41,383 bases of DNA from Kiritimatiellales bacterium. GTDB taxonomy: Bacteria > Verrucomicrobiota > Kiritimatiellia > Kiritimatiellales > Tichowtungiaceae. A program made the position numbers and the translations under genes. The first letter of the stretch is position 1, and every line of letters starts with the position of its first letter. Location of the stretch: positions 1-41,383 of the forward strand of contig JBBQSL010000005.1 in the NCBI GenBank assembly GCA_038213895.1, in the 5' to 3' direction. The notes under the pieces were generated by a model, which saw only the letters and a list, made by a program, of their open reading frames with translations, made no database searches and was not told the DNA's origin. Below are positions 15,824 to 37,620 of this stretch, in pieces.

Positions 15824-17644
15824 TTATCGTTTTCTCCGACTATGAGGACGGAGCTGTTTCATCTGCGTTCTGCGCTCGGCCAAACCTCGCACCACCGGCA
15901 CCGGTTCGCCGGTTTCATAATCAAGGCCGGTGTAATAAACAGCGGCAGCGGGCGTCATCGGTAGCGGTATAAAATCCTGCACTTGCTGGAGTTTCCATTC
16001 CTCCTCGCGCACAAATTTTTCAACCGCCTTCATTTCCTTTTCCGTCGATCCAGGAAAGTTGGAGATAAAGTACGGAACGATATACTGCTTCTTGCCCGCC
16101 GCACGGTTTTCCTCCTCGAACGCCTTCTGAAATTCGCAAAATGTCTCCGGTCCAGGTTTGCGCATTTTTTTCAGCACGTTCGGGTGCATATGCTCCGGTG
16201 CCACCTTCAAATGACCGGAAACATAGTGCTTCGCCAGCTCGCGGATATATTTCGGATTGCGCAGTGCCACGTCCATCCGAATGCCCGACTGGATAAAAAC
16301 ATGTTTCACCTTGGCCAGCTCGCGGACACGTTTCATCAGATGAATCGCTGACTCCGCATCCAGCTCAAGATTCGGGCAAATTGCCGGATATAAACAACTG
16401 GCGCGGCGGCAGACTTTACACGCCACGCAAACTCCGTTGGCACAACCGTATAAATTGGCCGTCGGCCCACCGAGATCGGTAATCGTTCCGGAAAAGGTTG
16501 GCGAGGCCGCCATCGTCTTCACCTCACGCACCACGGAATCCTCCGACCGGCTGGTCAAAAACCGTCCCTGATGCAAACCAAGTCCGCAAAAGGTGCAACC
16601 ACCACCACAGCCACGCACCACCGTCACCGATTCATTAATCATCGTAAACGCTGGAATCGGCTCTTTATAGGAAGGATGCGGAAGCCGCGTGTACGGCAGT
16701 TCATAAACACGATCCATTTCCACGCTGGTCAGCGGTTTTGCCGGCGGTGAAATCCATACGGCACGATCGCCGTGAAATTGAACTAACACCTTGCCGGAAA
16801 AAGGATTCTGCTCGCGCTCCGTCAACCGTGTCAGTTCCAGCACCGCTTTTTTGTCTACCAGACACTCCTCAAAGGACGGTAGTTTGATGCAGTTCGAAAA
16901 ATCATGCTCAGCCGACTCTTTTCCACCGAGCAGCCGCGCCGTTCCGGGGATGCCACTCAAATCAGCAACACCCACCCCGTCCGTCGCTCCGCTCCGGCCA
17001 CCCCTCCCCTGGAGGGGATTATTTAAACTCCCCTCCTTCGGAGGGGTGCCCGCAGGGTGGGGTGGGTTCCCAAGTCTCTTCGCGACTTCACGGATAGCGC
17101 GTTCGCCCATACCGTACACCAGCAGATCGGCCTTCGAATCCATCAGGATCGACGGACGCAGCTTATCCTGCCAGTAGTCATAGTGCGCCGTGCGCCGCAG
17201 GCTCGCTTCAATGCCGCCGAGCACCGTCACAACGCCCGGAAATGCTTTTTTGGCCAGTTGCGTATAAACCATACCAGCCAGATTGGGGCGTTTGCCGACT
17301 TCCCCGCCCGGTGTGTAGGAATCCTCTTTACGCTTGCGCCGCGCAGCGGTGTAATGCGAAAGCATCGAATCGAGATTGCCCGCCGTAATCCCGCAAAACA
17401 GGCGTGGACGACCCATCACGGTCAGCGACTCCGGCTTTGTCCAGTCGGGCTGGGCAATAATGCCTACACGCCAGCCGTCCGCCTCCAGTACGCGGCCGAT
17501 CACCGCCGCACCAAATGCCGGATGGTCAATATAGGCGTCGCCGCTGATAATCAGCACGTCTAGTTCGTCCCAGCCGCGCTGCTCCATTTCACGGCGTGAC
17601 ATGGGTAAAAACTGGTTTTTTCCAGCCATTGGAAAATCAGACAT
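15824..17644 (-). CDS. ygiQ: YgiQ-family radical SAM protein (UPF0313)
   Basis: 'FLPMSRREMEQRGWDELDVLIISGDAYIDHP' N-terminus and a CxxxCxxC-type cluster ('GCGGGCTFCG'). Carries a low-complexity insertion of about 34 aa encoded by a GC-rich palindromic DNA segment. Confidence 0.8.
   Translation of the reverse strand: MSDFPMAGKNQFLPMSRREMEQRGWDELDVLIISGDAYIDHPAFGAAVIGRVLEADGWRVGIIAQPDWTKPESLTVMGRPRLFCGITAGNLDSMLSHYTAARRKRKEDSYTPGGEVGKRPNLAGMVYTQLAKKAFPGVVTVLGGIEASLRRTAHYDYWQDKLRPSILMDSKADLLVYGMGERAIREVAKRLGNPPHPAGTPPKEGSLNNPLQGRGGRSGATDGVGVADLSGIPGTARLLGGKESAEHDFSNCIKLPSFEECLVDKKAVLELTRLTEREQNPFSGKVLVQFHGDRAVWISPPAKPLTSVEMDRVYELPYTRLPHPSYKEPIPAFTMINESVTVVRGCGGGCTFCGLGLHQGRFLTSRSEDSVVREVKTMAASPTFSGTITDLGGPTANLYGCANGVCVACKVCRRASCLYPAICPNLELDAESAIHLMKRVRELAKVKHVFIQSGIRMDVALRNPKYIRELAKHYVSGHLKVAPEHMHPNVLKKMRKPGPETFCEFQKAFEEENRAAGKKQYIVPYFISNFPGSTEKEMKAVEKFVREEEWKLQQVQDFIPLPMTPAAAVYYTGLDYETGEPVPVVRGLAERRTQMKQLRPHSRRKR
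16971..17072. repeat. in-frame GC-rich nested palindromic insertion inside ygiQ
   Basis: Outer arms CCCACCCC...GGGGTGGG. Two inner hairpins, CCCCTCC-CCT-GGAGGGG and CCCCTCC-TTC-GGAGGGG, around an AT-rich centre. Translates to PPHPAGTPPKEGSLNNPLQGRGGRSGATDGVGV. Confidence 0.6.
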
Positions 17645-19217
17645 GGGTCTTCCGTTTCTTTTTTCCCTGAGTCAAAAGCGTTTCAGTAGTTTGGACGTAG
17701 AGATTGAACAAAAACTCCACGCGGGTGGTTTCGGTGGTGAACGGTTGCGGACGGTAGCAGAGATCCACCGCACGATCCAACTCCTGATGGGCTTTCAGCA
17801 GGTCAACCGGCCTATAACGGGTCGCCTTGATGTACCAAGCCGTCACATAATCCAGCACTCCCGAGCCTTTAACCTTGGCAAAAATATCCGCCATCTCTTC
17901 ACGTTGCGTTTTAGACTGATACTTACTGCCGACAAATGGCGGATTGCCGAAAATGAAGTCGGATTTCTCCCCTCGGCGGGTTTTGAGTTCTTCAACCTCC
18001 TCTTCGGTCAAGATGTTGACTTTTTTGGCGGCGACATTGATTGCGCTGTAGTGTACCGGCGGCTCTTCGACTTTCATAACATTCTGCGTGTCCGCGCTGA
18101 GGTCGATATAGCTACCGGAAATCAGATGATCCCAATCAAGCCGCAATGCGTTGCCGTATGTGATATGCGCCGATTTTTTCAGCGGCAGGCGAACGAAATA
18201 CTGCCCGAATTCTTCGGAAACGAGCATGTTCATCTGGTGATCCATCAGCCACAGGGCAACTTCGGCAATCCGCGCGAGCCACTCTTCGTATTCAATGCCG
18301 TAGAACTGATCGACATCAATCCATAGTATGTCGGAGACATCGAGTACCGCCGGCCCGCCTTTGTGAAGTTCACGGAGAATTTCCAGCTCCAGCAGACGCA
18401 GCTCGCGGTAGGTGATGATCAAAAAATTTCCGCAGCCGCAGGCTGGGTCGAGAAATTTGAGTTTGGAAAGCTTTTCGTGGAATTCGACCAGCTTCTTGCT
18501 GCTTCCCTTACACTTCTTAAATTCAGCGTACAAATCATCCAAAAACAGCGGCCCGATGAGTTTGAGGATATTTTTTTCAGAGGTGTAGTGCGCACCCAAA
18601 TTACGCCGCGCCGTCGGGCTCATCACGGCCTGAAACATTGAGCCGAAGATTGCCGGAGAGATTTTTCCCCAATCGAGCGCACAGCATTCCAACAAAATTT
18701 CCCGCATCGCGGAGGTGAACGCGGCAATCCGTAGCGGCTCTTCGAACAGTCTGCCGTTGACGACGTAAGGAAATTGATTCAGCAATTCCTCGGTCGCGGA
18801 CTGTCGCGTTTCGCGCGGTGTGTCCAAGGTTTGGAAAAAGTCTGCCAGCACCGCGCCCAGATTATAGAGCCGGAAACGCTCGAAGTCGGAAACCAGCACA
18901 TATTTCGGTAACTCGTGCTCCTTGAGACCGCTGAAATAATCCAGCGCCTGCGAATAGGCCTTATCCAGATTTTTGCCGCGCGATTTATGCTCAACCAGCA
19001 GAGTCCCCTTCCAGAACAGGTCGATAAATCCGGTCTGCGCGTTCAGCTTTTTGACCGGCTTCTCGAAAGAGGCCACGCGGCGGCGGGAAATGCCGAAAAT
19101 GTGGAAAAACTCATCCCAAAAGGTCTTGGCCTCGGCGTGTTCACGGGTTTCGGCTTTCCAATCATTGGAAAACTTCATTGCCCGAGTTTTCATCTCATTC
19201 CACGATAAGGTTGCCAT
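17637..19217 (-). CDS. MmeI-family (type IIL RM / PglX-like) N6-adenine DNA methyltransferase, truncated form lacking the target-recognition domain; probable remnant
   Basis: MmeI-type N-terminus 'MATLSWNEMKTRAMKFSNDWK'. SAM motif I 'FLDPACGCGNFL'. Motif IV 'NPPF'. The family's C-terminal helix 'ELDRAVDLCY...RVEFLFNLY' follows directly. Only 526 aa, whereas intact members are about 900-1200. Overlaps ygiQ by 8 nt (ATGTCTGA). Confidence 0.6.
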   Translation of the reverse strand: MATLSWNEMKTRAMKFSNDWKAETREHAEAKTFWDEFFHIFGISRRRVASFEKPVKKLNAQTGFIDLFWKGTLLVEHKSRGKNLDKAYSQALDYFSGLKEHELPKYVLVSDFERFRLYNLGAVLADFFQTLDTPRETRQSATEELLNQFPYVVNGRLFEEPLRIAAFTSAMREILLECCALDWGKISPAIFGSMFQAVMSPTARRNLGAHYTSEKNILKLIGPLFLDDLYAEFKKCKGSSKKLVEFHEKLSKLKFLDPACGCGNFLIITYRELRLLELEILRELHKGGPAVLDVSDILWIDVDQFYGIEYEEWLARIAEVALWLMDHQMNMLVSEEFGQYFVRLPLKKSAHITYGNALRLDWDHLISGSYIDLSADTQNVMKVEEPPVHYSAINVAAKKVNILTEEEVEELKTRRGEKSDFIFGNPPFVGSKYQSKTQREEMADIFAKVKGSGVLDYVTAWYIKATRYRPVDLLKAHQELDRAVDLCYRPQPFTTETTRVEFLFNLYVQTTETLLTQGKKKRKTHV

Positions 19218-19358
19218 AGATGGAGAATCAGTTTCTTTAAGTTCAAAGTCAAGATTCCGGGTCACGAGGAATTCTAGGGTTTCCAATCCTTGGAAAATTT
19301 ATTCGACCTGATCGAAACGGCAACTTACTATGCAGGCCTGATTTAACTCAAAAAAAAC

Positions 19359-22300
19359 ATGCAACCATTAGACACCAATCTTTTTCTCGGCCTCTACCGA
19401 CACATGCTCGCATCGCGTAAAGCCGATGTCGTTCAGGAAGACGCCGCCCATCGCGGTGAGGCGTTTTTCTATGTCCCCTCCTCCGGCCACGAGTCGATGG
19501 CGGCACTGGCTCCTCATTTAACGCCGACGGACTGGCTGCACTGCCACTACCGCGACCGCGCGTTGATCCTCGCCCGCGGCGTCACACAAAAAGATCTGCT
19601 ACTCGAACTGCTCGGCAAAACCGGTTCACCCTCCGAGGGTCGCAACATGCCGGGATTTCCCTGTAACCGCCAGCTGAACCTGATCGGCGCCCCAACTGGC
19701 GTCGGCAGCAATACGGTGCAGGCCGTCGGTATCGCGCAGGCGATTAAGAACAGCAGCGACATCGTTTATTGCGGTATCGGCGATGGAGGCACACAAGAAG
19801 GCGAATTTTTTGAAGCCGTAGCCGAAGCCGTCCGCTCGCAGCTTCCCGTACTGTTTGTCGTCCAGAATAATCGTTACGCCCTTTCCACGCTGTCCAAAGG
19901 TCGCACCTTCTTTTCCCTGCCTGACGGCGATGCCAAAGAGTTCTACGGACTGCCGATTCTACGCGTTGATGGTACCGACGCCGTCGCAACACACCGCGTT
20001 TTCGGTGAAGCAGTTTCCAAGATTCGGAAAACCCGCGGCCCGCAGATCGTCGTAATGAATATTGAGCGACTAACCAGCCACACCAACGCCGACGACCATA
20101 CGCTCTACCGCTCCGCCGACGACATTCGGGAAATGCACGAGAAGTCCGATCCAATTTTAAACATCGCTGAGAAGCTGATCGCCGCCGGTATTCCCGAAGC
20201 ACAGCTCAAAGCCATTGAACACGAGGTTAACCAAGAACTTATCGCCGCTTTTGACGCCGCCCGCCGCGCAAAAAATGCCAAAACGGAACTTAGCGCGAAG
20301 AAACCGCTGCCCGCAAAACTGACGGCGGCAGAAAGTGAAAAACGCACGGACGGCGACGCGCTGACCATGCTCGAAGCGATGCGCGCCGTACTCCGCGACC
20401 GGCTCGGTACCGATAAAGATGTCTATCTCTACGGCGAAGATATTGAAGACCCTAAAGGCGATGTCTTCGGCTTAACGCGCGGCCTAAGCACCGCATTCCC
20501 CGGACGGGTTATCAATGCCCCGCTCAGCGAAGCTACCATCGTAGGCGCAGCGATCGGTCAGGCTCTTGTCGGGAAAAAGCCGGTTGCCTGTATCCAATTC
20601 GCCGACTTTATGCTTCCCGCTTTCAATCAAATCGCCGCCGAACTCGGCGCGATATGGTGGCGCACCAATGGACAATGGGAATGCCCCGTTATTTTGATGG
20701 TAATCTGCGGGGCTTATCGTCCCGGACTCGGCCCGTACCACGCACAAACGTTCGACGCAACCTTTGCGCATATTCCCGGTCTCGATGTTTTTATGCCTTC
20801 GACCGCCGCCGATGCCGCCGGTCTGCTCAACGCCTCCTTTGAGTCTGGACGTCCGACCGTATTCCTTTTCCCGAAAAATCTGATCAACGACCGCTCCGTC
20901 ACCGCCTCTGCCGACGCGGCGCAACAATTCGTACCCATCGGCAAAGCGCGCGTCACCCGTCCGGGCCGCGATCTCACTATCGTCAGCTGGGGCAGTACCG
21001 TACCGCTCTGCGAAAAAACAGCCGATGCACTGCAAACTGCTGGCGCGTCTGTCGAAGTAATTGATCTACGCTCGCTCGTTCCGTGGGATCAGGAAGCCGT
21101 TATCGCCTCCGCACAAAAAACAGGAAAATTGCTCGTCGTCCACGAAGACAACCATACCTGCGGATTCGGCGGCGAAGTGCTGGCCACGGTTGCCGAAAAA
21201 GCCAATGTTCCGGTGCAGATGGCGCGCGTCGCTCGGCACGACACCTACATTCCCTATCTCTTTGAAACGCAACTTGAGGTGTTGCCGTCATTCCGCACCG
21301 TACTCGGCAAAGCCGCCGAACTGCTCGACTACTCGCTGACGTGGCGAAAACCGATCGAAGAGGCCGAAGGCTTTGTAACCGTCAACGCCATCGGCTCCAG
21401 CCCGTCGGACAAAACAGTAAAAGTGACCGAACTGCACGTCAAAGTTGGACAAACCGTTAAAGCGGGCGAATTACTCGCTTCCGTCGAGGCCGACAAAGCC
21501 ACGATGGAAATTTCCGCGCCCGCGAGCGGAACCGTCGAAGAGCTCTTCTTGGCTGAAGGCGAGTCAGTAGATGTCGGCACCCCGCTGGCCCGCATCGCTA
21601 CCGAAGAAATCAGTCTCATTAAAAAACCGATTACCAAAGACGATCCCGGCACTCCGGTGCTGGAAAAACGAACGACCCTTGCTCCGCAGAGCGGTAAAAC
21701 CGTTACCGACGAGAGAAAACCGGTATTGATCTCTTCGATTGCCACCGTGCTCGGCTCGCGCCACATCACCAACGAAGAGCTGCTGCAAGGCCATGGAGAA
21801 TGGGATTCTGAGGCGATCCGCTCGCGTACCGGCTGCGAAAACCGTTACTGGATCACCGGCGACGAAAATGTCGAAACGCTGGCGGTCAAAGTCGTGCGCG
21901 ACCTGCTCGAAATGGAAAAACTGACGATTGCCGATATCGACGCACTCGTCTGTTCAACTGGCACCCCGCTAGCCATGACGCCATCGCTCGCCTGTCGCGT
22001 CCTCAAAGAACTCAGCCCCACCAAAGGCGAAGTCCAAATGCAGGCTCACGACATTAGTGCCGCCTGTTCGGGCTACATGTACGCCCTGCAAAACGCCTGT
22101 GACATCTTACGCGACGATCCGACAAAGAAAGTCATCATCATCACCGCCGAAACGCTTTCACCGATGATTAATCACGAAGATCAAAAAACACTGGCGCTCT
22201 TTGGCGATGCGGCGACCGCCTCGTTACTTTCCTGTGAACCGCGCGGCGGCAACGTCAATATTCTGGTGAACCGACCGGTTCTTTCCGCTACCGGCGTGGA

Positions 22301-22682
22301 TGAAAAAGTTCTCTACGTTCCTCACATGGGCAGCGGCAAGGTCATCGAAATGGAAGGACTCACCGTTTTCAAGCTCGCCGTACGCAAGATGATCGACATG
22401 CTCGCCGAAGCCTGCGAAAGCCGAGGCATCGCTGTGGATGCGCTTGATATGATCGTACCGCACCAGGCCAATGAACGAATTATCGAAGCCATTCGTAAAA
22501 CCATCCACTGCCCGCCGGAAAAAATGTTTAACCACATCCGTAAATACGCCAACACCTCGTCGAATACCATACCGTTCGCGCTGGTCGAGCTGATGCCCCA
22601 AATGAAAAAGGACGCACTGGTCGGTCTCACTGCATTTGGTGGCGGCTTCACCTTCGGCGCGGCCGTCATTGAAAAGCAATAA
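19359..22682 (+). CDS. four-domain fusion: 2-oxoacid dehydrogenase E1 alpha (TPP) + E1 beta + lipoyl domain + 3-oxoacyl-ACP synthase III (FabH-like)
   Basis: One uninterrupted 1107-aa ORF. Domains are listed by approximate residue ranges in the 1107-aa ORF. Residues 1-310: E1 alpha ('YRHMLASRKAD', TPP motif 'GIGDGGTQEG', 'VVQNNRYALST'). Residues 330-655: E1 beta ('LYGEDIEDPKGDVFGLTRGL', 'IQFADFM', 'VEVIDLRSLVPWD'). Residues 665-745: lipoyl domain ('VEADKATMEISAPASGTV'). Residues 770-1107: KAS III with a Cys-His-Asn triad ('AACSGYMYAL', 'VPHQANERII', 'ANTSSNTIPFAL', 'GGGFTFGAAV'). Confidence 0.85.
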   Translation: MQPLDTNLFLGLYRHMLASRKADVVQEDAAHRGEAFFYVPSSGHESMAALAPHLTPTDWLHCHYRDRALILARGVTQKDLLLELLGKTGSPSEGRNMPGFPCNRQLNLIGAPTGVGSNTVQAVGIAQAIKNSSDIVYCGIGDGGTQEGEFFEAVAEAVRSQLPVLFVVQNNRYALSTLSKGRTFFSLPDGDAKEFYGLPILRVDGTDAVATHRVFGEAVSKIRKTRGPQIVVMNIERLTSHTNADDHTLYRSADDIREMHEKSDPILNIAEKLIAAGIPEAQLKAIEHEVNQELIAAFDAARRAKNAKTELSAKKPLPAKLTAAESEKRTDGDALTMLEAMRAVLRDRLGTDKDVYLYGEDIEDPKGDVFGLTRGLSTAFPGRVINAPLSEATIVGAAIGQALVGKKPVACIQFADFMLPAFNQIAAELGAIWWRTNGQWECPVILMVICGAYRPGLGPYHAQTFDATFAHIPGLDVFMPSTAADAAGLLNASFESGRPTVFLFPKNLINDRSVTASADAAQQFVPIGKARVTRPGRDLTIVSWGSTVPLCEKTADALQTAGASVEVIDLRSLVPWDQEAVIASAQKTGKLLVVHEDNHTCGFGGEVLATVAEKANVPVQMARVARHDTYIPYLFETQLEVLPSFRTVLGKAAELLDYSLTWRKPIEEAEGFVTVNAIGSSPSDKTVKVTELHVKVGQTVKAGELLASVEADKATMEISAPASGTVEELFLAEGESVDVGTPLARIATEEISLIKKPITKDDPGTPVLEKRTTLAPQSGKTVTDERKPVLISSIATVLGSRHITNEELLQGHGEWDSEAIRSRTGCENRYWITGDENVETLAVKVVRDLLEMEKLTIADIDALVCSTGTPLAMTPSLACRVLKELSPTKGEVQMQAHDISAACSGYMYALQNACDILRDDPTKKVIIITAETLSPMINHEDQKTLALFGDAATASLLSCEPRGGNVNILVNRPVLSATGVDEKVLYVPHMGSGKVIEMEGLTVFKLAVRKMIDMLAEACESRGIAVDALDMIVPHQANERIIEAIRKTIHCPPEKMFNHIRKYANTSSNTIPFALVELMPQMKKDALVGLTAFGGGFTFGAAVIEKQ

Positions 22683-22686
22683 ACCT

Positions 22687-23292
22687 ATGTTACACCCCGA
22701 CACAGAAGTCCGCTGGATCAGCAAAGAAATTGGATGCGGCATTGTCGCTACCCGCGACATTCCCAAAGGCACCATCACCTGGGCTATTGACCCGCTTGAC
22801 CGGCTTTTCAGCCCGCAGCAGGTGACTGAACTTCCAGATCGCTGCCGCGAAACGCTTTTCAAATATTCCTACCGCAACCGGCACGGCGAATACGTCTTCT
22901 GCTGGGACAATACGCGCTTCATGAACCACAGTTTTACGCCCAATTGCATCACCACCGCCTACAACTTTGAACTGGCTGTGCGCCACATTGCCGAAGGCGA
23001 AGAACTAACCAACGACTACGGCTCGCTCAATATTCTGGAACCCTTTCAGGCCTGCGACGAAGGTACCGACCGGAAAGTGGTTTACCCTGACGACATCGCC
23101 CGCCACTACCAGCAGTGGGACAAAAAACTGGAAGGCGCCTTCAAACTGGTGCATCTAGTCGAACAACCGTTACGCGAGATGCTTTCAGCCGAACAGTGGG
23201 AAAAAACCTGTCACATCGCCGAAAAACGCTCCCCGATGGACTCCATCCTCAACTGCCTGCATCGGCCTACCGCGGATTACAAAAAACTGTAG
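22687..23292 (+). CDS. SET-domain protein (putative protein-lysine methyltransferase)
   Basis: 'GCGIVATRDIPKGT', 'FMNHSFTPNC' and 'GEELTNDYG' are SET-domain signatures. Starts 5 nt after the fusion-gene stop. Confidence 0.7.
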   Translation: MLHPDTEVRWISKEIGCGIVATRDIPKGTITWAIDPLDRLFSPQQVTELPDRCRETLFKYSYRNRHGEYVFCWDNTRFMNHSFTPNCITTAYNFELAVRHIAEGEELTNDYGSLNILEPFQACDEGTDRKVVYPDDIARHYQQWDKKLEGAFKLVHLVEQPLREMLSAEQWEKTCHIAEKRSPMDSILNCLHRPTADYKKL

Positions 23293-23390
23293 TTGCGGGC
23301 GTTGACCGCGGATTATTGGCCGCCCTCACCGCGGGCGGCTACAGTAAGAAAATTGCGGCCACATCATTTATTAAAATGTGCTAGCCCCTT

Positions 23391-23422
23391 CGACTTTCAG
23401 ACGTTTAGACTTTCGACTTTCG
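23391..23422 (+). promoter_or_regulatory. duplicated leader/promoter-like element, copy 1 (GACTTTC triplet)
   Basis: CGACTTTCAGACGTTTAGACTTTCGACTTTCG lies 25 nt before the ATG at 23447. A near-identical copy is at 24217-24248. Confidence 0.5.
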
Positions 23423-23446
23423 TTCTTCCTGCTTAGACTCCCCGCT

Positions 23447-24205
23447 ATGAATACTCTCCTGAAAATGATTTTCTGGATTTCGATCCTTACTGTTTTGCTC
23501 TGCGGATGCGATGTGCGGGAGCAGCCGAAAAAAGAGCCTGTCTCAGAAATTCCCGCAATAACCTCGGTGCCACCCGTCAAAACAGAGCAACCCGAAGTAA
23601 CCATTCCGTCCAAACCCGCACTGTCCGACAAACAAACCATCGCGTCCATTCGGGGATTACTTGGCGAACCGGACGGCGAAATGACACTTGGGGAGCGCAC
23701 CATTCTACTGTACAGCGGAGAAGCACTGGAATTTACCAGCGGAAAGTGGACAAACCCTCAGCCAGATATTCAGGAAAAAATTGCAGCTAAGAAAAAGCCC
23801 CTCACTAAACAAGTTGCTGTCCAAGCTGCCCCAGCAGAAAAAAAACCGGCTGTACCGCCTCCGGTTATTGTCAGACCCTTTGCCGCGCCGGTTACCGAAA
23901 ATGACCCAAGCGAATACAGTGCCCTGCTCATTCCCGGGAAAATCACCGTAATCGATTTTTACGCCACTTGGTGCGGACCCTGCAAGCAATTGGCACCCAT
24001 CTTGGACGACATTATCCGCAAACAGCCCAATACAGTTTTGCGTAAAGTCAATATCGGTAACTGGGGCTCCAGTATAGCCAAAAAATACAACATTACCTCC
24101 GTCCCTAATGTCCGTGTATTTGATAAAAATGGCCACATGGTCGGAACGCCGACCTCTCGCCCAGATCAAATAACCAAAAACATAGAAGAGGCTCAGACGC
24201 GGTAG
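23447..24205 (+). CDS. thioredoxin-fold lipoprotein/secreted protein
   Basis: Signal peptide 'MNTLLKMIFWISILTVLLCGC', Pro/Ala/Lys-rich linker, and a C-terminal thioredoxin domain with 'WCGPC'. Confidence 0.7.
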   Translation: MNTLLKMIFWISILTVLLCGCDVREQPKKEPVSEIPAITSVPPVKTEQPEVTIPSKPALSDKQTIASIRGLLGEPDGEMTLGERTILLYSGEALEFTSGKWTNPQPDIQEKIAAKKKPLTKQVAVQAAPAEKKPAVPPPVIVRPFAAPVTENDPSEYSALLIPGKITVIDFYATWCGPCKQLAPILDDIIRKQPNTVLRKVNIGNWGSSIAKKYNITSVPNVRVFDKNGHMVGTPTSRPDQITKNIEEAQTR

Positions 24206-28471: not shown

Positions 28472-29407
28472 TTATGCGCCTTCGGTACGGAGACGCGGAT
28501 CAAGCGCGTCGCGCAACGCATCGCCGAGCAAATTGAAGGCTAAAACTAATCCAAAAATGGCCAGCGTAACGAAGGTCATTTCCCACCAAACGCCCTGCCA
28601 GAGCCGCATGCGGGCACTATTGATCATAATACCCCACGACGGTTCGTTCTGGACACCGATACCAAGAAAACTCATGAAGACTTCCGTGCTCACGGCCGCC
28701 GGGAAACGTAGCGTAAAAGTTACGATTACGACGTGGAAGACGTTGGGAAGAATGTGACGGAAGAGAATCCGCGGCCAACTCAGCCCTAGCGCTTTCGCCG
28801 CCTGCACATAGGCCTGCTCCTTATGTTTGATCACTTCACCGCGAATCAGACGGCACAGTCCGACCCACGTGGTAAGTCCGATGCCGAGATAAATTCCCAT
28901 CAGCCCCTTTCCGACCACCATAGCAATGGCAAGAATGAAAAGCAGCCCCGGCATCGAAGCGACAGTAGAATAAAGCCAGACGACAAAGCTATCCACCCTG
29001 CCACCAAAATAGCCCGCCAGACAGCCGAAGAAAACGCCGATCGGAATAGCAATCAGCGCGGTGATGATACCAACCTTATAGGCAATGCGCGTCCCCTGAA
29101 TCAGACGCTGCATCACGTCACGACCCAACGCGTCAGTGCCCATCCAATGTTTGGAATATGGAGATTGATAGGCCTGATTCAGATCGGTCTTCTGATAAAA
29201 AGCAGTCTGATCTTTCGCCTTATAAACCTGATAAACCGCTTCGCCATAAACGGCCAGCGCGGTGTAAAAAACGACCACCCCGAGACAAACCATCGCGAGG
29301 CGGTTCTTTTTCAATCGCCGCCAAGCGTCGGACCAGAGCGAGATTCCTCGCTCCGGAGTTCTCGGCGGTCGGGGTTGGGGGTCAGTCCTTGAATTTTGAT
29401 ATTTCAT
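28472..29407 (-). CDS. peptide ABC transporter permease, OppC/DppC-like
   Basis: N-terminal 'SLWSDAWRRLKKNRLAMVCLGVVV' and the transporter motif region. Its ATG (29407-29405) and the first codons lie inside the left end of the adjacent transposon. Confidence 0.8.
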   Translation of the reverse strand: MKYQNSRTDPQPRPPRTPERGISLWSDAWRRLKKNRLAMVCLGVVVFYTALAVYGEAVYQVYKAKDQTAFYQKTDLNQAYQSPYSKHWMGTDALGRDVMQRLIQGTRIAYKVGIITALIAIPIGVFFGCLAGYFGGRVDSFVVWLYSTVASMPGLLFILAIAMVVGKGLMGIYLGIGLTTWVGLCRLIRGEVIKHKEQAYVQAAKALGLSWPRILFRHILPNVFHVVIVTFTLRFPAAVSTEVFMSFLGIGVQNEPSWGIMINSARMRLWQGVWWEMTFVTLAIFGLVLAFNLLGDALRDALDPRLRTEGA

Positions 29408-30456
29408 TCTTCATCTCCAACAAAGCACCCTCTGTCACCACTTCAACCTCGCGAACCGCTCTTGAAATCGTCGCCGCGTGACCCATATTTAACGCCTCGG
29501 AAATCCATTCGTTCTTTACGCTCGTATTCCGGCGAATAAGCCATGCGATAACCTTTTTCCGGTCATCGCCTTTTTTCAGCTTTTGCAACATCTCACGGTT
29601 AACTTTCAGGACGTCCAGACCGTTCCCAAGAAGTTTTTCAGCAGCCTGTTTATCATGTCGCGCAACGGCTCCGCCGCTGTGCGAATCCCGGCGTTTTCCC
29701 ATTGCAGCATTCTCCAGAGCACCGCGCACTTGTGAACAAAACTCTGCGGATCCGAAAATCCATCCCCTTCGGATCTGATCCCACATCTCATCCGCTTTCG
29801 CTGGGTTGTCGCTATGCAGAATGGCCAGGACTCTCTTCTGCATGGCCTTGCGATAGGCCGCTCTTCCGAGTGCTGTATCCTCAAAACTGCAACTCTTCAG
29901 AACCCGGTCCACCGTCAGCCAGCCGGGCCGCTCCGAAGGATAAAGATATCCCCGAAAACTGCTCCATTTGAAATCAGAAAGTGTGCCCTTCTCTAGATCA
30001 AAACAGTTCGCCCGCACCGGATTCAAATGAATATAACTGGATACAGTAGAAAAATACTCTCCACCATCTACCAAAAGGGCTTTATATCGGCCTTGGAAAA
30101 GATGACCCCAGACCTTATGCCGGGCATTAAAGCGCTGAGTATACGTCCCCTGAAGCCACCGCATACCATCCACGAGATTCGGTTCCGGTGTTTCCAGCAG
30201 AAGATGATAGTGATTACCCATCAGGACAAAGACGTGGACTCTCCATCCACATCGATTGCACGCATCCCCGAGAGTTTTAAGAAACATCTCGTGATCCTGC
30301 TGGTCTTTAAAAACCGGATCCTGACGGTTACCGCGGCACATCACATGATATACTGCCCCGGGGAATTGAACTCTTAACGGTCTTGGCATGAGAATCATGT
30401 AAACAAACTACAAAGGTAGCGTCAATCGAAAATATCAAAATTCAAGGACTGACCCC
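29378..30456. mobile_element. insertion element carrying a Y1 (IS200-like) + DnaA-HTH transposase, bounded by 27-bp perfect terminal inverted repeats
   Basis: 29378-29404 is GGGGTCAGTCCTTGAATTTTGATATTT. 30430-30456 is its exact reverse complement. A single gene lies inside. The right flank has a tandem 11-bp duplication GACCCCACTAA (30451-30472). Confidence 0.7.
29382..30398 (-). CDS. transposase: N-terminal Y1 HuH (IS200-like) domain + C-terminal DnaA-type helix-turn-helix
   Basis: 'VYHVMCRGNRQ' and HuH 'MGNHYHLLLE'. The C-terminus 'KVIAWLIRRNTSVKNEWISEALNMGHAATISRAVREV' is a DnaA-C-like HTH. The stop codon sits in the left inverted repeat. Confidence 0.75.
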   Translation of the reverse strand: MILMPRPLRVQFPGAVYHVMCRGNRQDPVFKDQQDHEMFLKTLGDACNRCGWRVHVFVLMGNHYHLLLETPEPNLVDGMRWLQGTYTQRFNARHKVWGHLFQGRYKALLVDGGEYFSTVSSYIHLNPVRANCFDLEKGTLSDFKWSSFRGYLYPSERPGWLTVDRVLKSCSFEDTALGRAAYRKAMQKRVLAILHSDNPAKADEMWDQIRRGWIFGSAEFCSQVRGALENAAMGKRRDSHSGGAVARHDKQAAEKLLGNGLDVLKVNREMLQKLKKGDDRKKVIAWLIRRNTSVKNEWISEALNMGHAATISRAVREVEVVTEGALLEMKNEISKFKD

Positions 30457-35278: not shown

Positions 35279-36181
35279 TTAGGCCCAGAGATTTTCGGGG
35301 TAAACACCGGCAGTGACGAGCGCGCGGATACCCGCCATTACTTGCGGCTTGTCGTCGGCATAGGTGACGCCCATCCATTTTTCGTTGGTAGGCAGAACCT
35401 CTACAGTGGTCTGGCCACGTTTGATCAGGTCGTCAACGACTTCCAATAAGAAAAATTCACTTTTGAGTTCTGTTCCGCGCCGCGCGAGAAATTCAGCAAA
35501 GCCCCGATCCAACGCTTCGAACAACCCCGGTGTGAAGCCCCAGGTGTTCATGGAAACCATATCGTCGTCGGCCATCGGTTTCAGTTCGTTATTTTCTTCA
35601 TACCGAATCACGCCGTCCGCTTTGCGCTCAATGTTGTAGCGCTCGACAATGTGCCGAAGCTTCCCGTTCTGCACGTCACAGAAACCACGCGCCACGCCAC
35701 CGTAAGGCGATAGCGTGTTTTTGATATAAAAGCCGACCATGCAACTTTCGGTGCTTTTCACGTCCATTGCCATCAGCCGTTTAGCGATGACTTGAAACGA
35801 TTGGCATCCATAAAAGTCGTCGGCGTTAATTACCGCAAACGGTTCGTGAACGACGGGGCGCGCCATAAGAACCGCCTGACCGGTGCCCCACGGTTTGGTG
35901 CGACCTGCCGGCATCAAAAATCCGGACGGAAGTTTGTCCATGGTTTGGAAAACGTATTCGACCTGAATTTTTCCGTCGAGCTTACGTCCGATCACTTCCT
36001 TGAAGGCTTCTTCGATATCAGGACGAATAATAAAAACGACTTTGCCGAAACCCGCTTGAATCGCGTCGTACACTGAATAATCCAAAACAATTTCGCCGGA
36101 CGGGCCGACGGGGTCAATCTGTTTGAGCCCGCCGTAGCGGCTACCGATTCCTGCGGCCATAATCACGAGAGTTGGTTTCAT
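35279..36181 (-). CDS. sugar-phosphate nucleotidyltransferase (NTP-transferase fold)
   Basis: Gly-rich NTP loop 'LVIMAAGIGSRYGGLKQ' and 'VINADDFYG'. The start overlaps the upstream gene's stop by 4 nt. Confidence 0.6.
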   Translation of the reverse strand: MKPTLVIMAAGIGSRYGGLKQIDPVGPSGEIVLDYSVYDAIQAGFGKVVFIIRPDIEEAFKEVIGRKLDGKIQVEYVFQTMDKLPSGFLMPAGRTKPWGTGQAVLMARPVVHEPFAVINADDFYGCQSFQVIAKRLMAMDVKSTESCMVGFYIKNTLSPYGGVARGFCDVQNGKLRHIVERYNIERKADGVIRYEENNELKPMADDDMVSMNTWGFTPGLFEALDRGFAEFLARRGTELKSEFFLLEVVDDLIKRGQTTVEVLPTNEKWMGVTYADDKPQVMAGIRALVTAGVYPENLWA

Positions 36182-37620
36182 AGAAGACTTCCAAGGATTA
36201 GAACGCCGATGCTAAGCGCACCGATCAGCCAGGTCTGCGGATCGCGAGCGGCAAATTCAAGCGGATCATCGGACAGCTCTCCCCGGGCGGCTAGCAACCA
36301 GACCCGAGCGATCCAATATAAAAACAGCGGACAGATTAGCCAAAGTACCGCCGGATGGTTATAAAATTGCACAACCTTTTCGCTGTTGATATATAGCGCG
36401 AGAACCAGCACGGCGACACATCCGCTGCCGGTACCAAAGCCGGCCAGCATCGGCAGATCGGCGGCGCAGTACCCGCGTCCGCGCACCAGAACCTTTTCAC
36501 CCTGATCCAGCGAGGCTTCACGCAGTTCGGCGTAGCGTTTGACCATGGCGAGACTAAAGAAAAGGAAAATAGAGAACGCAATCAGCCACGTTGACGTTTC
36601 GATATCATAGGCCGCCGTACCCGCGAGAATACGAATCGCATAGAGCCCCGCCAAGGTCATCACGTCGAGCAGCGCAACCTGCTTGAGTCTCCATGAATAA
36701 AGCGTGGTAATGACGAGATAAATCAGCAGAACGGCAATAAAGGTTCGCGACAGCATCTGCGCAACGCCCAGTGCCGCCAGAACAAGTAACGGCGAAACAA
36801 CAACTGCCATTTTCAAATTCACATTGCCTGCCGCGAAGGGACGGTTTTTTTTGCGCGGATGATGTTGATCCGCATGCAGGTCGAAGAGGTCGTTGAAAAT
36901 ATAAATGGCCGACGCCGCAAAACTGAAGGCAAAGAATGCGAGTACGGCTTTGACATACAACGCGGGCGTTGTCAGTTCGTGCGCCAGTATCATTGGCAGG
37001 AAAATGAGGCTGTTTTTTGTCCATTGATGAATGCGTAGCGCTTTGAGCCAGGTTTTCAGCCGCGCCGGACGGTCTTCGAACAGTTGCACAGTCTGGTTCT
37101 TGAGTGCACGGCGTACCGATCCACAAGGATTAACGACGATAATCTCGGTGGCGGCTTCCCAGACCGGCAGATCATCGGTGGAATTACCGGCATAATCGAA
37201 CCCTTTTTCGCCGAAGCGGGCAACGAGCGCGTCGCGCTTACAGGCGGCTTTAAGATTAGTAACTCCATCGCTGGCCATGACCTCTGAGAAAAGACCGAGA
37301 TGCGCGGCAACGGCGCGGGCGGGGGTCTCGTCCGAAGCGGTCACTAAAATCAGTTCGCGACCTTTCTCCCGCTCGGTTTTCAAAAAGGCCAGCAGACCGG
37401 GATGGTATGGTAAGGCGGCTGGGTCGAGCTGTATCTCCTGCGCGACCTGCCGCTTAAAAGCGGCCAGCCCATTGGCGGTCCAACGCGGAATAGAAAACAA
37501 TATTTCTGGCCGGGTACGGATGAGTAGTAACAAGGCCTGCGCAAAGGTGTCGGTCTTCACCAGTGTTCCATCGAGATCAACGCACAGCGGGATTTCCCCT
37601 TTTTCAGGCTTCTCAGTCAT
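36178..37620 (-). CDS. fusion of HAD-superfamily phosphatase (N-terminal) and UbiA-family prenyltransferase (C-terminal)
   Basis: N-terminal HAD motif I 'CVDLDGTLVKTDT'. The C-terminal half has eight or nine TM helices and the UbiA aspartate-rich motif 'NDLFDLHADQHHPRKKNRPFAAG'. Confidence 0.75.
   Translation of the reverse strand: MTEKPEKGEIPLCVDLDGTLVKTDTFAQALLLLIRTRPEILFSIPRWTANGLAAFKRQVAQEIQLDPAALPYHPGLLAFLKTEREKGRELILVTASDETPARAVAAHLGLFSEVMASDGVTNLKAACKRDALVARFGEKGFDYAGNSTDDLPVWEAATEIIVVNPCGSVRRALKNQTVQLFEDRPARLKTWLKALRIHQWTKNSLIFLPMILAHELTTPALYVKAVLAFFAFSFAASAIYIFNDLFDLHADQHHPRKKNRPFAAGNVNLKMAVVVSPLLVLAALGVAQMLSRTFIAVLLIYLVITTLYSWRLKQVALLDVMTLAGLYAIRILAGTAAYDIETSTWLIAFSIFLFFSLAMVKRYAELREASLDQGEKVLVRGRGYCAADLPMLAGFGTGSGCVAVLVLALYINSEKVVQFYNHPAVLWLICPLFLYWIARVWLLAARGELSDDPLEFAARDPQTWLIGALSIGVLILGSLL

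Follow-up and report, generated by a model that had tools for sequence, protein, structure and literature searches.

A one-gene fusion of a 2-oxoacid dehydrogenase E1, a lipoyl domain and a FabH-type ketosynthase as a candidate ketoacid-fed initiator of lipid synthesis

Results

One reading frame joins E1 alpha, E1 beta, a lipoyl domain and KAS III

The stretch of DNA analyzed here, which we call the window, comprises positions 1-41,383 of the forward strand of contig JBBQSL010000005.1 from a Kiritimatiellales bacterium (GCA_038213895.1). It contains a single open reading frame (ORF) in which the alpha and beta parts of a 2-oxoacid dehydrogenase E1 are followed by a lipoyl domain and by a FabH-type beta-ketoacyl-acyl carrier protein (ACP) synthase III, or KAS III (Table 1). 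This four-part order had been read from the translated sequence in an initial annotation, and profile scans bear it out. Pfam recognizes six domains from the N- to the C-terminus, and the NCBIfam model for beta-ketoacyl-ACP synthase 3, NF006829, matches aa 790-1105 with 260.2 bits, passing its cut-off of 249. TIGR00747 gives 222 bits on the KAS III, under its cut-off of 292, and a weak match to the FAE1/type III polyketide synthase (PKS) Pfam model overlaps the same domain. The motifs quoted in the annotation could all be located, namely GDG, EADK around Lys713, AACSG around Cys903, PHQAN with His1035 and ANTS with Asn1065. The E2 acyltransferase core that it had described as missing is indeed missing: neither the E2 catalytic domain (PF00198) nor an E3-binding domain was matched in the Pfam scan of the protein.

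An AlphaFold2 model of the full chain has a mean predicted local distance difference test (pLDDT) score of 86.9 and a predicted template-modeling (TM) score of 0.71, with high-confidence domain junctions. Disorder is restricted to a loop of the lipoyl domain, a short loop in E1 beta and residues 774-784 of the linker ahead of the KAS III. When the model was compared with solved structures using Foldseek, the E1 beta part matched 1um9_B, the E1 beta of branched-chain 2-oxoacid dehydrogenase (BCKDH), with a TM-score of 0.92, and the KAS III part matched FabH structures with TM-scores of 0.89-0.91. No single solved chain spanned the entire protein.

Table 1. Features of the fusion gene and the adjoining gene; nucleotide positions are those of the window and residues those of the fusion protein
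Feature	Nucleotides	Strand	Residues	Basis or remark
Whole ORF, E1alpha-E1beta-lipoyl-KAS III fusion	19359..22682	+		1107 codons; ATG start, TAA stop; 0 internal stops
E1 alpha domain, thiamine pyrophosphate (TPP)-binding	19398..20282	+	14-308	E1_dh; nearest solved relative 1UM9_A
Pfam E1_dh			14-308	E 8e-48
TPP/Mg motif G141-D142-G143 ... N170-N171	19779..19871	+		Motif read and conservation
His241	20079..20081	+		Aligns with His of 'GHS' (human pyruvate dehydrogenase E1 alpha) and 'PHSS' (Thermus E1 alpha)
E1 beta domain (Transket_pyr + Transketolase_C)	20361..21338	+	335-660	Pfam; 1um9_B alignment
Pfam Transket_pyr			335-509	
Pfam Transketolase_C			528-639	
Lipoyl domain	21372..21602	+	672-748	Biotin_lipoyl; AlphaFold2 beta-strands 672-747
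Pfam Biotin_lipoyl			686-746	E 1e-18
Lys713, predicted lipoylation site in E-A-D-K-A	21495..21497	+		Motif; conservation
Linker	21603..21722	+	749-788	Between lipoyl domain and KAS III
KAS III (FabH-type) domain	21723..22679	+	789-1107	NF006829; PDB FabHs E 4e-48 to 1e-31; Foldseek
Pfam ACP_syn_III			898-960	
Pfam ACP_syn_III_C			1019-1105	
Ala819, at E. coli FabH Trp32 position (adenine clamp, one face)	21813..21815	+		Ungapped HMMER alignments, four solved FabHs
Thr874, at E. coli FabH Phe87 position (primer pocket)	21978..21980	+		Alignments
Cys903, acyl-accepting nucleophile (E. coli FabH Cys112)	22065..22067	+		Alignment; conservation
Gln942, at E. coli FabH Arg151 position (adenine clamp, other face)	22182..22184	+		Alignments
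PHQANER: His1035 (E. coli His244), Asn1038 (E. coli Asn247), Arg1040 (E. coli Arg249, ACP docking)	22461..22478	+		Alignment
Asn1065 (E. coli Asn274), third of decarboxylation triad	22551..22553	+		Alignment
SET-domain gene	22687..23292	+		ATG 22687, 4 nt after fusion stop codon

The E1 and lipoyl modules keep their catalytic residues

Both halves of the E1 find their best solved relative in the BCKDH of Thermus thermophilus, by modest score gaps. The alpha part scores 150 bits against 1UM9_A and about 100 bits against the E1 alpha of pyruvate dehydrogenase (PDH), while the beta part aligns with 1um9_B over its full length (residues 4-324) at 215 bits and with PDH beta at 180 bits. The E1 thus appears closest to the branched-chain type. 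Its residues H241, E391 and H461 align with their equivalents in 1UM9 and human PDH; Glu391, in PLSEA, corresponds to the TPP-activating glutamate, and His461, in HAQ, is the counterpart of the catalytic histidine of the beta subunit. By homology, we take His241 to be the counterpart of human BCKDH His291-alpha, which acts in reductive acylation of the lipoyl group. The role of that alpha-subunit histidine is named in the title of PDB entry 1OLS.

Conservation was assessed over 60 homologues at 46-88% identity. G141, G143, N171, H241, E391, H461, K713, C903, H1035, R1040 and N1065 are invariant in all 60, and D142, also in the TPP motif, is retained by at least 90% of them. Lys713 is also kept in at least 90% of a further set of 36 distant homologues. 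Degeneracy of an active site would have counted against the initial annotation, and by alignment no degenerate site was found in the E1, lipoyl or KAS III parts.

Two short motifs mark the family outside the catalytic residues. Where a classical E1 beta reads GEDVG-x-GGVF, the fusion carries the insert-like motif GEDIEDPKGDVFG, in which E363-D364-P365-K366-G367 is followed by DVFGLTRG (aa 368-375, 20460-20483, +). This family-specific motif could serve as a search pattern in the genome scan. The linker holds K756-PITKDDPGT-P766 (21624-21656, +), with the family form KP(I/V)xK(E/D)xPGTP and with G764 and P766 invariant in the 60 sequences. Residues 749-788 contain no peripheral-subunit/E3-binding domain by Pfam and no helices in the AlphaFold2 model, which places a beta-strand at 765-770 and falls below a pLDDT of 50 at aa 774-784. 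The same linker motif occurs in P0156, a protein without KAS III.

The KAS III domain has lost the adenine clamp of FabH

In E. coli FabH, the adenine of acyl-coenzyme A (acyl-CoA) is stacked between Trp32 and Arg151, and Thr28 is hydrogen-bonded to it (PMC4606726). To follow these positions we used two family sets, 111 close homologues of the window protein and 62 diverse fused KAS III domains. Trp32 is present in just 2 of the 62 diverse domains, the others having Asp, Glu or Ala, and Arg151 is present in none; among the close homologues the latter position is occupied by Gln (75) or Pro (36). Thr28 is lost family-wide and Asn210 is variable. Six canonical FabHs, including the Aquifex, Bacillus, Neisseria and Haemophilus structures, retain both Trp32 and Arg151. 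Because the two clamp residues are so nearly absent from the family, the alignments indicate that the nucleotide-recognizing part of the FabH CoA site is lost across the fusions. A MAFFT alignment of the close homologues had placed E. coli Trp32 on a tryptophan four residues upstream of Ala819. We rejected this placement because the HMMER alignments are ungapped there and the upstream tryptophan is not conserved in distant members.

The rest of the active site is kept. In the 62 diverse domains, the catalytic cysteine is present in all, the histidine in 61 and the asparagine in 60, and the ACP-docking position of Arg249 is Arg in 56 and Lys in 5. The GFGGG oxyanion loop (G1094-G1096) is present and conserved, and so is the inner tunnel (Met207 in 58 of 62, Gly209 in 61, Asn247 in 55). 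Arg36, a pantetheine-phosphate contact, is kept in the window protein and in 36 of the 62. From this pattern, the parts that would serve access of a thiol arm to the cysteine, docking of malonyl-ACP and decarboxylation are under selection. Two further departures from canonical FabH are the replacement of FGDGAGA by FGDAATA in the window protein and the residue at the position of Phe87, a primer-pocket residue of FabH. The latter is Thr in all 111 close homologues and Thr, Ser, Ala or Ile among the diverse set, and a small residue here suggests a roomier pocket and a primer larger than acetyl.

The fusion is widespread in at least six phyla

When 5.8 billion proteins were searched, with the window protein listed as P0001, more than 120 clusters came back with identities of 62-100%, a length of about 1100 aa and an identical domain set. 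They include proteins from Tichowtungia aerotolerans, which has a complete genome (P0058), and Pontiella desulfatans (P0085). About 40 further proteins, alignable from end to end with identities of 37-54%, emerged when 1.84 billion 50%-identity representatives were searched exhaustively with HMMER, and a profile built from 36 of them matched at least 2227 clusters at E <1e-50. Members named by source come from Planctomycetaceae, Pirellulaceae, Gemmataceae, Spirochaetaceae, Alkalispirochaetaceae, Lentisphaeraceae, candidate division KSB3 and Sumerlaeota. When a single genome was scanned for each GTDB species, relatives turned up in at least 585 species genomes, with one match per genome. The best 80 of these are all this fusion, and those copies not cut by a contig end match the query over about 1-1107. 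Overall the family runs to thousands of database entries and occurs in Kiritimatiellota, Lentisphaerae, Planctomycetota, Spirochaetota, KSB3 and Sumerlaeota. The nearest relatives of the window protein, at 90-91% identity, are in metagenome-assembled genomes (MAGs) of freshwater Pontiellaceae/Kiritimatiellales.

These searches answer the question of an artefact. A frameshift or misassembly could in principle join separate bkdA, bkdB, lipoyl and fabH genes. The fusion is uninterrupted in hundreds of MAGs as well as in independent isolates (Tichowtungia aerotolerans, Pontiella desulfatans and Planctomycetales bacterium 10988), and the domain junctions are modeled with high confidence. Because the unbroken architecture is conserved, we rejected the artefact, to which we give next to no credence. 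The single reading frame claimed by the initial annotation thus holds, recurring across the clusters and the best 80 species genomes, and the architecture search that it had proposed as a check places the fusion in at least six phyla. Its further remark, that the architecture is not known to be characterized, needs a qualification. Our literature searches found no paper describing an E1-lipoyl-KAS III architecture, with incomplete coverage of subscription papers, so that this is not proof of absence. The family itself has many members, which databases already list under automatic names ('beta-ketoacyl-ACP synthase 3', 'transketolase', '2-oxoisovalerate dehydrogenase E1'), and any one of these names covers only one third of the protein.

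Sister proteins carry other domains in the place of KAS III

The same E1-lipoyl chassis is found with other C-terminal ends. After the lipoyl domain, P0151, P0180, P0183, P0192, P0193, P0196, P0200 and P0208 have an E2 catalytic domain (E2cat), P0190 has E2cat and then an ACP, and P0155 has a thioesterase. In P0156, an unknown domain of about 270 aa follows, GNAT-like by eye. P0127 keeps the KAS III and extends it with KR and ACP domains, implying that its KAS III makes a 3-oxoacyl thioester on ACP. P0189 continues from the lipoyl domain into an E2cat-ACP-KS-MT-C-A megasynthase resembling PKS and nonribosomal peptide synthetase (NRPS) lines. By their E1-lipoyl parts, P0151, P0155 and P0156 come nearest to the KAS III fusions (55-57% identity), from which it follows that the C-terminal domain was exchanged within the clade; over aa 9-774, P0151 and P0155 are 50-53% identical to the window protein. 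By analogy among these proteins, the C-terminal slot would most simply be read as holding whichever domain removes the acyl group from the lipoyl arm. Together, the E1alpha-beta-lipoyl proteins with varied ends could form a modular family of ketoacid-loading cassettes. In one further relative, P0238, E1alpha-beta is joined to CHASE2 and a nucleotide cyclase, and no lipoyl domain was found.

The fusion gene stands alone among its neighbors

The initial annotation had pointed to a SET-domain gene 5 nt downstream and had taken co-transcription to be likely. The gene does adjoin the fusion, with a spacing one base shorter than claimed, and within the window the two are probably co-transcribed. In the gap between them a terminator-like site is not above chance, and the promoter/terminator scan likewise gave nothing above chance. 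A functional link is unsupported: the SET gene adjoins the fusion only in relatives that are 88% or more identical and is not beside it in the Tichowtungia, Pontiella, Planctomycetes, KSB3 and Spirochaetes loci. Since it is not a conserved partner, we do not count it as part of the system. An operon with the SET, thioredoxin or methyltransferase genes was rejected as well, these genes standing beside the fusion only in its closest relatives. The thioredoxin-domain protein, two genes downstream (23378-24205, +) and extended at its N-terminus by about 170 aa, is a tempting candidate to re-oxidize the lipoyl arm, but it does not adjoin the fusion in other lineages.

In Tichowtungia, Pontiella, the Planctomycetales isolate, KSB3 and a spirochaete MAG, the fusion gene lies alone among unrelated housekeeping genes. 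This solitary setting outside biosynthetic clusters is seen in five phyla. All-against-all clustering of flanking ORFs from 80 loci revealed no family common to the Kiritimatiellota loci and those of Planctomycetes/Lentisphaerae, and on this basis we rejected a conserved partner (lpd, lplA, acpP, fabD or E2) within 4-10 kb. A tblastn search of the loci with E. coli FabH found one FabH-like place in each, the fusion itself. No E2 gene is adjacent to the fusion in 88 loci, there is no biosynthetic cluster around it in the window or in 88 other loci, and the rest of the window has no gene related to lipid or lipoate metabolism.

Upstream, an MmeI-family ORF (type IIL restriction-modification; 549 aa, 17637-19286, -; listed with 15824-17644, -) sits between a YgiQ-type radical SAM gene and the fusion gene. 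The same slot holds an EcoO109I endonuclease and a C5 methylase in one relative (L007) and a PLD-domain protein in Tichowtungia (L001), and is empty in another relative (L008), so it looks like a variable defense-gene slot. Elsewhere in the window, an IS200/Y1-transposase-like ORF of 338 aa (29382-30398, -) lies between two oligopeptide ABC permease genes. The pairing of OppC with Y1_Tnp recurs in L007 (15557-17525) and seems conserved rather than a recent insertion. In a further ORF (36178-37620, -), a HAD-type hydrolase domain is fused with a UbiA-family prenyltransferase.

Host fatty acids point to a branched ketoacid

In all five cultured Kiritimatiellota, the fatty acids are exclusively even-numbered iso (i-C12, 14, 16, 18, 20) and even straight-chain ones, with odd and anteiso acids absent (PMC5148204, PMC7356697, PMC10880615). 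Two of them, Pontiella desulfatans and Tichowtungia aerotolerans, are hosts of the fusion and have only i-C12/14/16/18 and even straight-chain acids (PMC7356697, PMC10880615). Iso-even acids are built on an isobutyryl primer derived from the ketoacid of valine (PMC10026030). The host profile fits an E1 that selects 2-oxoisovalerate and feeds the KAS III. In Kiritimatiellota, 2-oxoisovalerate would be the most likely substrate, and pyruvate is possibly used as well.

Discussion

A ketoacid-fed start to lipid synthesis

Taken together, these results make it likely that the fusion serves, in general terms, as a ketoacid-fed initiator of lipid synthesis. From its parts we infer the substrate, a direct lipoyl-to-cysteine transfer, the use of malonyl-ACP and a re-oxidation step, which together suggest the following cycle. 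The BCKDH-type E1, with alpha and beta in one chain and probably a homodimer, would decarboxylate a 2-oxoacid with TPP and reductively acylate the dithiolane of lipoyl-Lys713, tethered just after E1 beta. The S-acyl-dihydrolipoyl arm would then enter the KAS III tunnel, where thioester exchange could pass the acyl group to Cys903 in place of acyl-CoA. Using the His1035/Asn1065 decarboxylation pair and docking by Arg1040, the KAS III would condense the acyl-cysteine with malonyl-ACP; from isobutyryl the product would be 3-oxo-4-methylpentanoyl-ACP, which type II fatty-acid synthesis could extend to iso-even acids. A free dihydrolipoamide dehydrogenase or another disulfide oxidoreductase would re-oxidize the dihydrolipoyl arm in trans. 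Slow re-oxidation of this kind might suffice, because each fatty acid needs one primer.

The core of this cycle is a direct hand-off from lipoyl arm to Cys903 that bypasses CoA and starts fatty-acid synthesis from a 2-oxoacid. We consider it probable, with clearly less assurance than the general role. The initial annotation had suggested such a hand-off from the presence of both domains in one polypeptide. Several findings now argue for it: the adenine clamp is lost while the catalytic triad and the ACP-docking arginine are kept, sister proteins have E2cat or a thioesterase in the slot of the KAS III, and the hosts make iso-even acids. The mechanism itself is still deduced rather than observed.

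A number of points weigh against this proposal, beginning with the fact that the hand-off is read from the sequence alone. Loss of Trp32 and Arg151 means that the adenine clamp is gone, and does not show that acyl-CoA binding is impossible. Turnover of the lipoyl arm is unexplained, because the protein has no E3-binding domain and no lpd gene lies near the fusion in 88 loci. The choice between BCKDH and PDH type for the E1 depends on modest score gaps, and the top NCBIfam match of E1 alpha is a PDH model, under its cut-off. The fusion is shown in two of the five cultured isolates, and Kiritimatiella glycovorans is not among them. Many of the Planctomycetes with the fusion reportedly contain chiefly straight-chain lipids, and the substrate would therefore differ between clades.

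Three other readings accept the fusion and differ on what it does. It may merely bring the classical steps together, with the acyl group released as acyl-CoA, whether by way of a separate E2 core or of free CoA, and the KAS III taking up acyl-CoA. Such a course would follow the canonical pathway from Bkd through acyl-CoA to FabH (PMC10026030), and it can draw on the retained Arg36 and on the single-chain E1-lipoyl-E2cat relatives, which show E2 chemistry in the wider family. The window protein, however, has neither an E2 catalytic domain nor a subunit-binding domain for docking to an E2 core, no E2 gene is adjacent in the 88 loci, CoA-specific residues are lost family-wide (Trp32, Arg151 and Thr28) or variable (Asn210), and the KAS III occupies the slot that E2cat fills in sister proteins. 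We judge the classical route unlikely. Slightly less likely again, in our view, is a KAS III that works mainly as an acyltransferase in place of E2, moving the acyl group from lipoyl through Cys903 to holo-ACP or another thiol or amine, with no condensation and with elongating synthases taking over. KAS III-fold acyltransferases such as DpsC and CerJ are known, FabH has acyl-CoA:ACP transacylase as a side activity, and P0190, with its E2cat-ACP end, represents lipoyl-to-ACP transfer in this superfamily. Against this reading stand the near-complete retention of the histidine and asparagine at His1035 and Asn1065, which malonyl decarboxylation needs and transacylation does not, the conserved GFGGG loop, a score above the NCBIfam FabH cut-off and the KR of P0127, which requires a 3-oxo product.

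The fusion might also be a starter module for a specialized lipid or polyketide, such as an alkyl lipid or a resorcinol, rather than for housekeeping fatty acids. The PKS/NRPS-like relatives P0189 (lipoyl-E2cat-ACP-KS-MT-C-A) and P0127 (KR-ACP) and the weak FAE1/type III PKS match over the KAS domain lean this way. They are opposed by the housekeeping neighbors and the absence of a biosynthetic cluster in the window and 88 loci, by the finding of one match per genome, both for the best 80 loci and for at least 585 species genomes, and by host fatty-acid profiles that match the predicted primer. We find a specialized product the least probable of these three, by a small step. Direct loading of the ketosynthase from the lipoyl arm is the reading that we prefer.

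A wider claim can be offered only tentatively, and we hold it less likely than not. Type II fatty-acid synthesis in Kiritimatiellota, as well as in many Planctomycetota, Lentisphaerae and Spirochaetota, might have the fusion as its main or even its sole initiator, with the lipoyl arm loading the ketosynthase cysteine directly. Priming from ketoacids such as 2-oxoisovalerate and pyruvate, in place of acyl-CoA, would then explain the even iso and straight-chain signature of the phylum, and E1-lipoyl would be a cassette for acyl loading that evolution has attached, as a module, to ketosynthases, E2 domains, thioesterases and PKS/NRPS lines.

Bacterial fatty-acid initiation is taught as the condensation of acyl-CoA with malonyl-ACP on FabH, with FabY and malonyl-ACP decarboxylation as known bypasses. 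If the direct hand-off is true, it would add a CoA-independent entry that channels a ketoacid skeleton straight into lipid synthesis, and a lipoyl arm would for the first time be seen to serve a ketosynthase. The unusual iso-even-only lipid profile of Kiritimatiellota would gain a molecular explanation, and the fusion would supply a compact one-gene part for making branched-chain lipids from ketoacids with no Bkd complex. The fusion also recalls a proposal by Oku and Kaneda in 1988, cited in PMC10026030, on a branched 2-oxoacid decarboxylase. By its title, that work reportedly found the decarboxylase indispensable to the branched-chain fatty-acid synthetase; as we read the proposal, branched ketoacids would prime the synthetase directly.

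Comparison with known systems

The closest likeness in chemistry is to the Bkd complex (E1alpha2beta2, E2 and E3) and FabH of Gram-positives, which run from TPP-dependent decarboxylation through a lipoyl group to KAS III (PMC10026030). The Bkd E1 is homologous to that of the window, and in the Bkd/FabH system the KAS III condensation sets the branched-chain pattern (PMC10026030). Bkd and FabH are separate proteins, whereas the window has one polypeptide without E2 core, subunit-binding domain or nearby E3, and the acyl-CoA intermediate is apparently skipped. E1 enzymes of the heterotetramer type likewise have separate subunits that dock on an E2 core; here alpha and beta are fused, with no E2 core in the protein or nearby. 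Canonical FabHs (E. coli 1HN9/1HND, B. subtilis FabHA 8VD9, Aquifex 2EBD) share the fold, the triad, the GFGGG loop and Arg249 with the window KAS III. They stand alone and have the Trp32/Arg151 clamp, in contrast to the window domain, which lies behind a lipoyl domain and has Ala819 and Gln942 at the clamp positions, FGDAATA, and Thr for Phe87.

Systems outside fatty-acid synthesis offer partial parallels. PMC13249901 mentions a two-component transketolase/lipoyl-E2/ACP system by which a C2 unit is loaded during synthesis of quinocarcin and naphthyridinomycin. Like the window protein in the cycle proposed here, this loader has a TPP enzyme and a lipoyl arm that delivers an acyl group to a biosynthetic carrier and not to CoA, and the order E1-lipoyl-E2cat-ACP in P0190 and P0189 is analogous to it. 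Its details, including the ketose donor, are reportedly given by Peng et al. (PNAS, 2012). It differs in having an E2-type domain, an ACP acceptor, a ketose donor and a secondary-metabolite cluster, where the window has a ketosynthase cysteine as presumed acceptor and a lone housekeeping-type gene; by Pfam, the window protein has neither E2cat nor ACP, and there is no cluster context in the window. OdhA/KGD of Corynebacterium and Mycobacterium, found among the Foldseek matches (8P5V, 6R29), is alike in fusing an E1 with an acyl acceptor domain, in this case E1o with an E2 catalytic domain. OdhA differs in that it is a homodimer of the E1o type whose N-terminal domain is a succinyltransferase; it carries no lipoyl domain itself and yields succinyl-CoA. 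The uncharacterized proteins with E2cat (P0151, P0180, P0183, P0192, P0193) or thioesterase (P0155) have the same E1-lipoyl chassis as the window protein and another C-terminal acceptor domain. We found no description of these either, and their logic is an analogy rather than an experimental precedent.

Set beside these systems, the window protein appears to have the catalytic equipment of an E1, a lipoyl domain and a KAS III, and to lack both the quaternary structure and partners of E1 with E2 and the acyl-CoA site of FabH. Its parts are familiar. What would be new, with no description found in the literature searched, is the coupling of a lipoyl arm to a ketosynthase with CoA bypassed.

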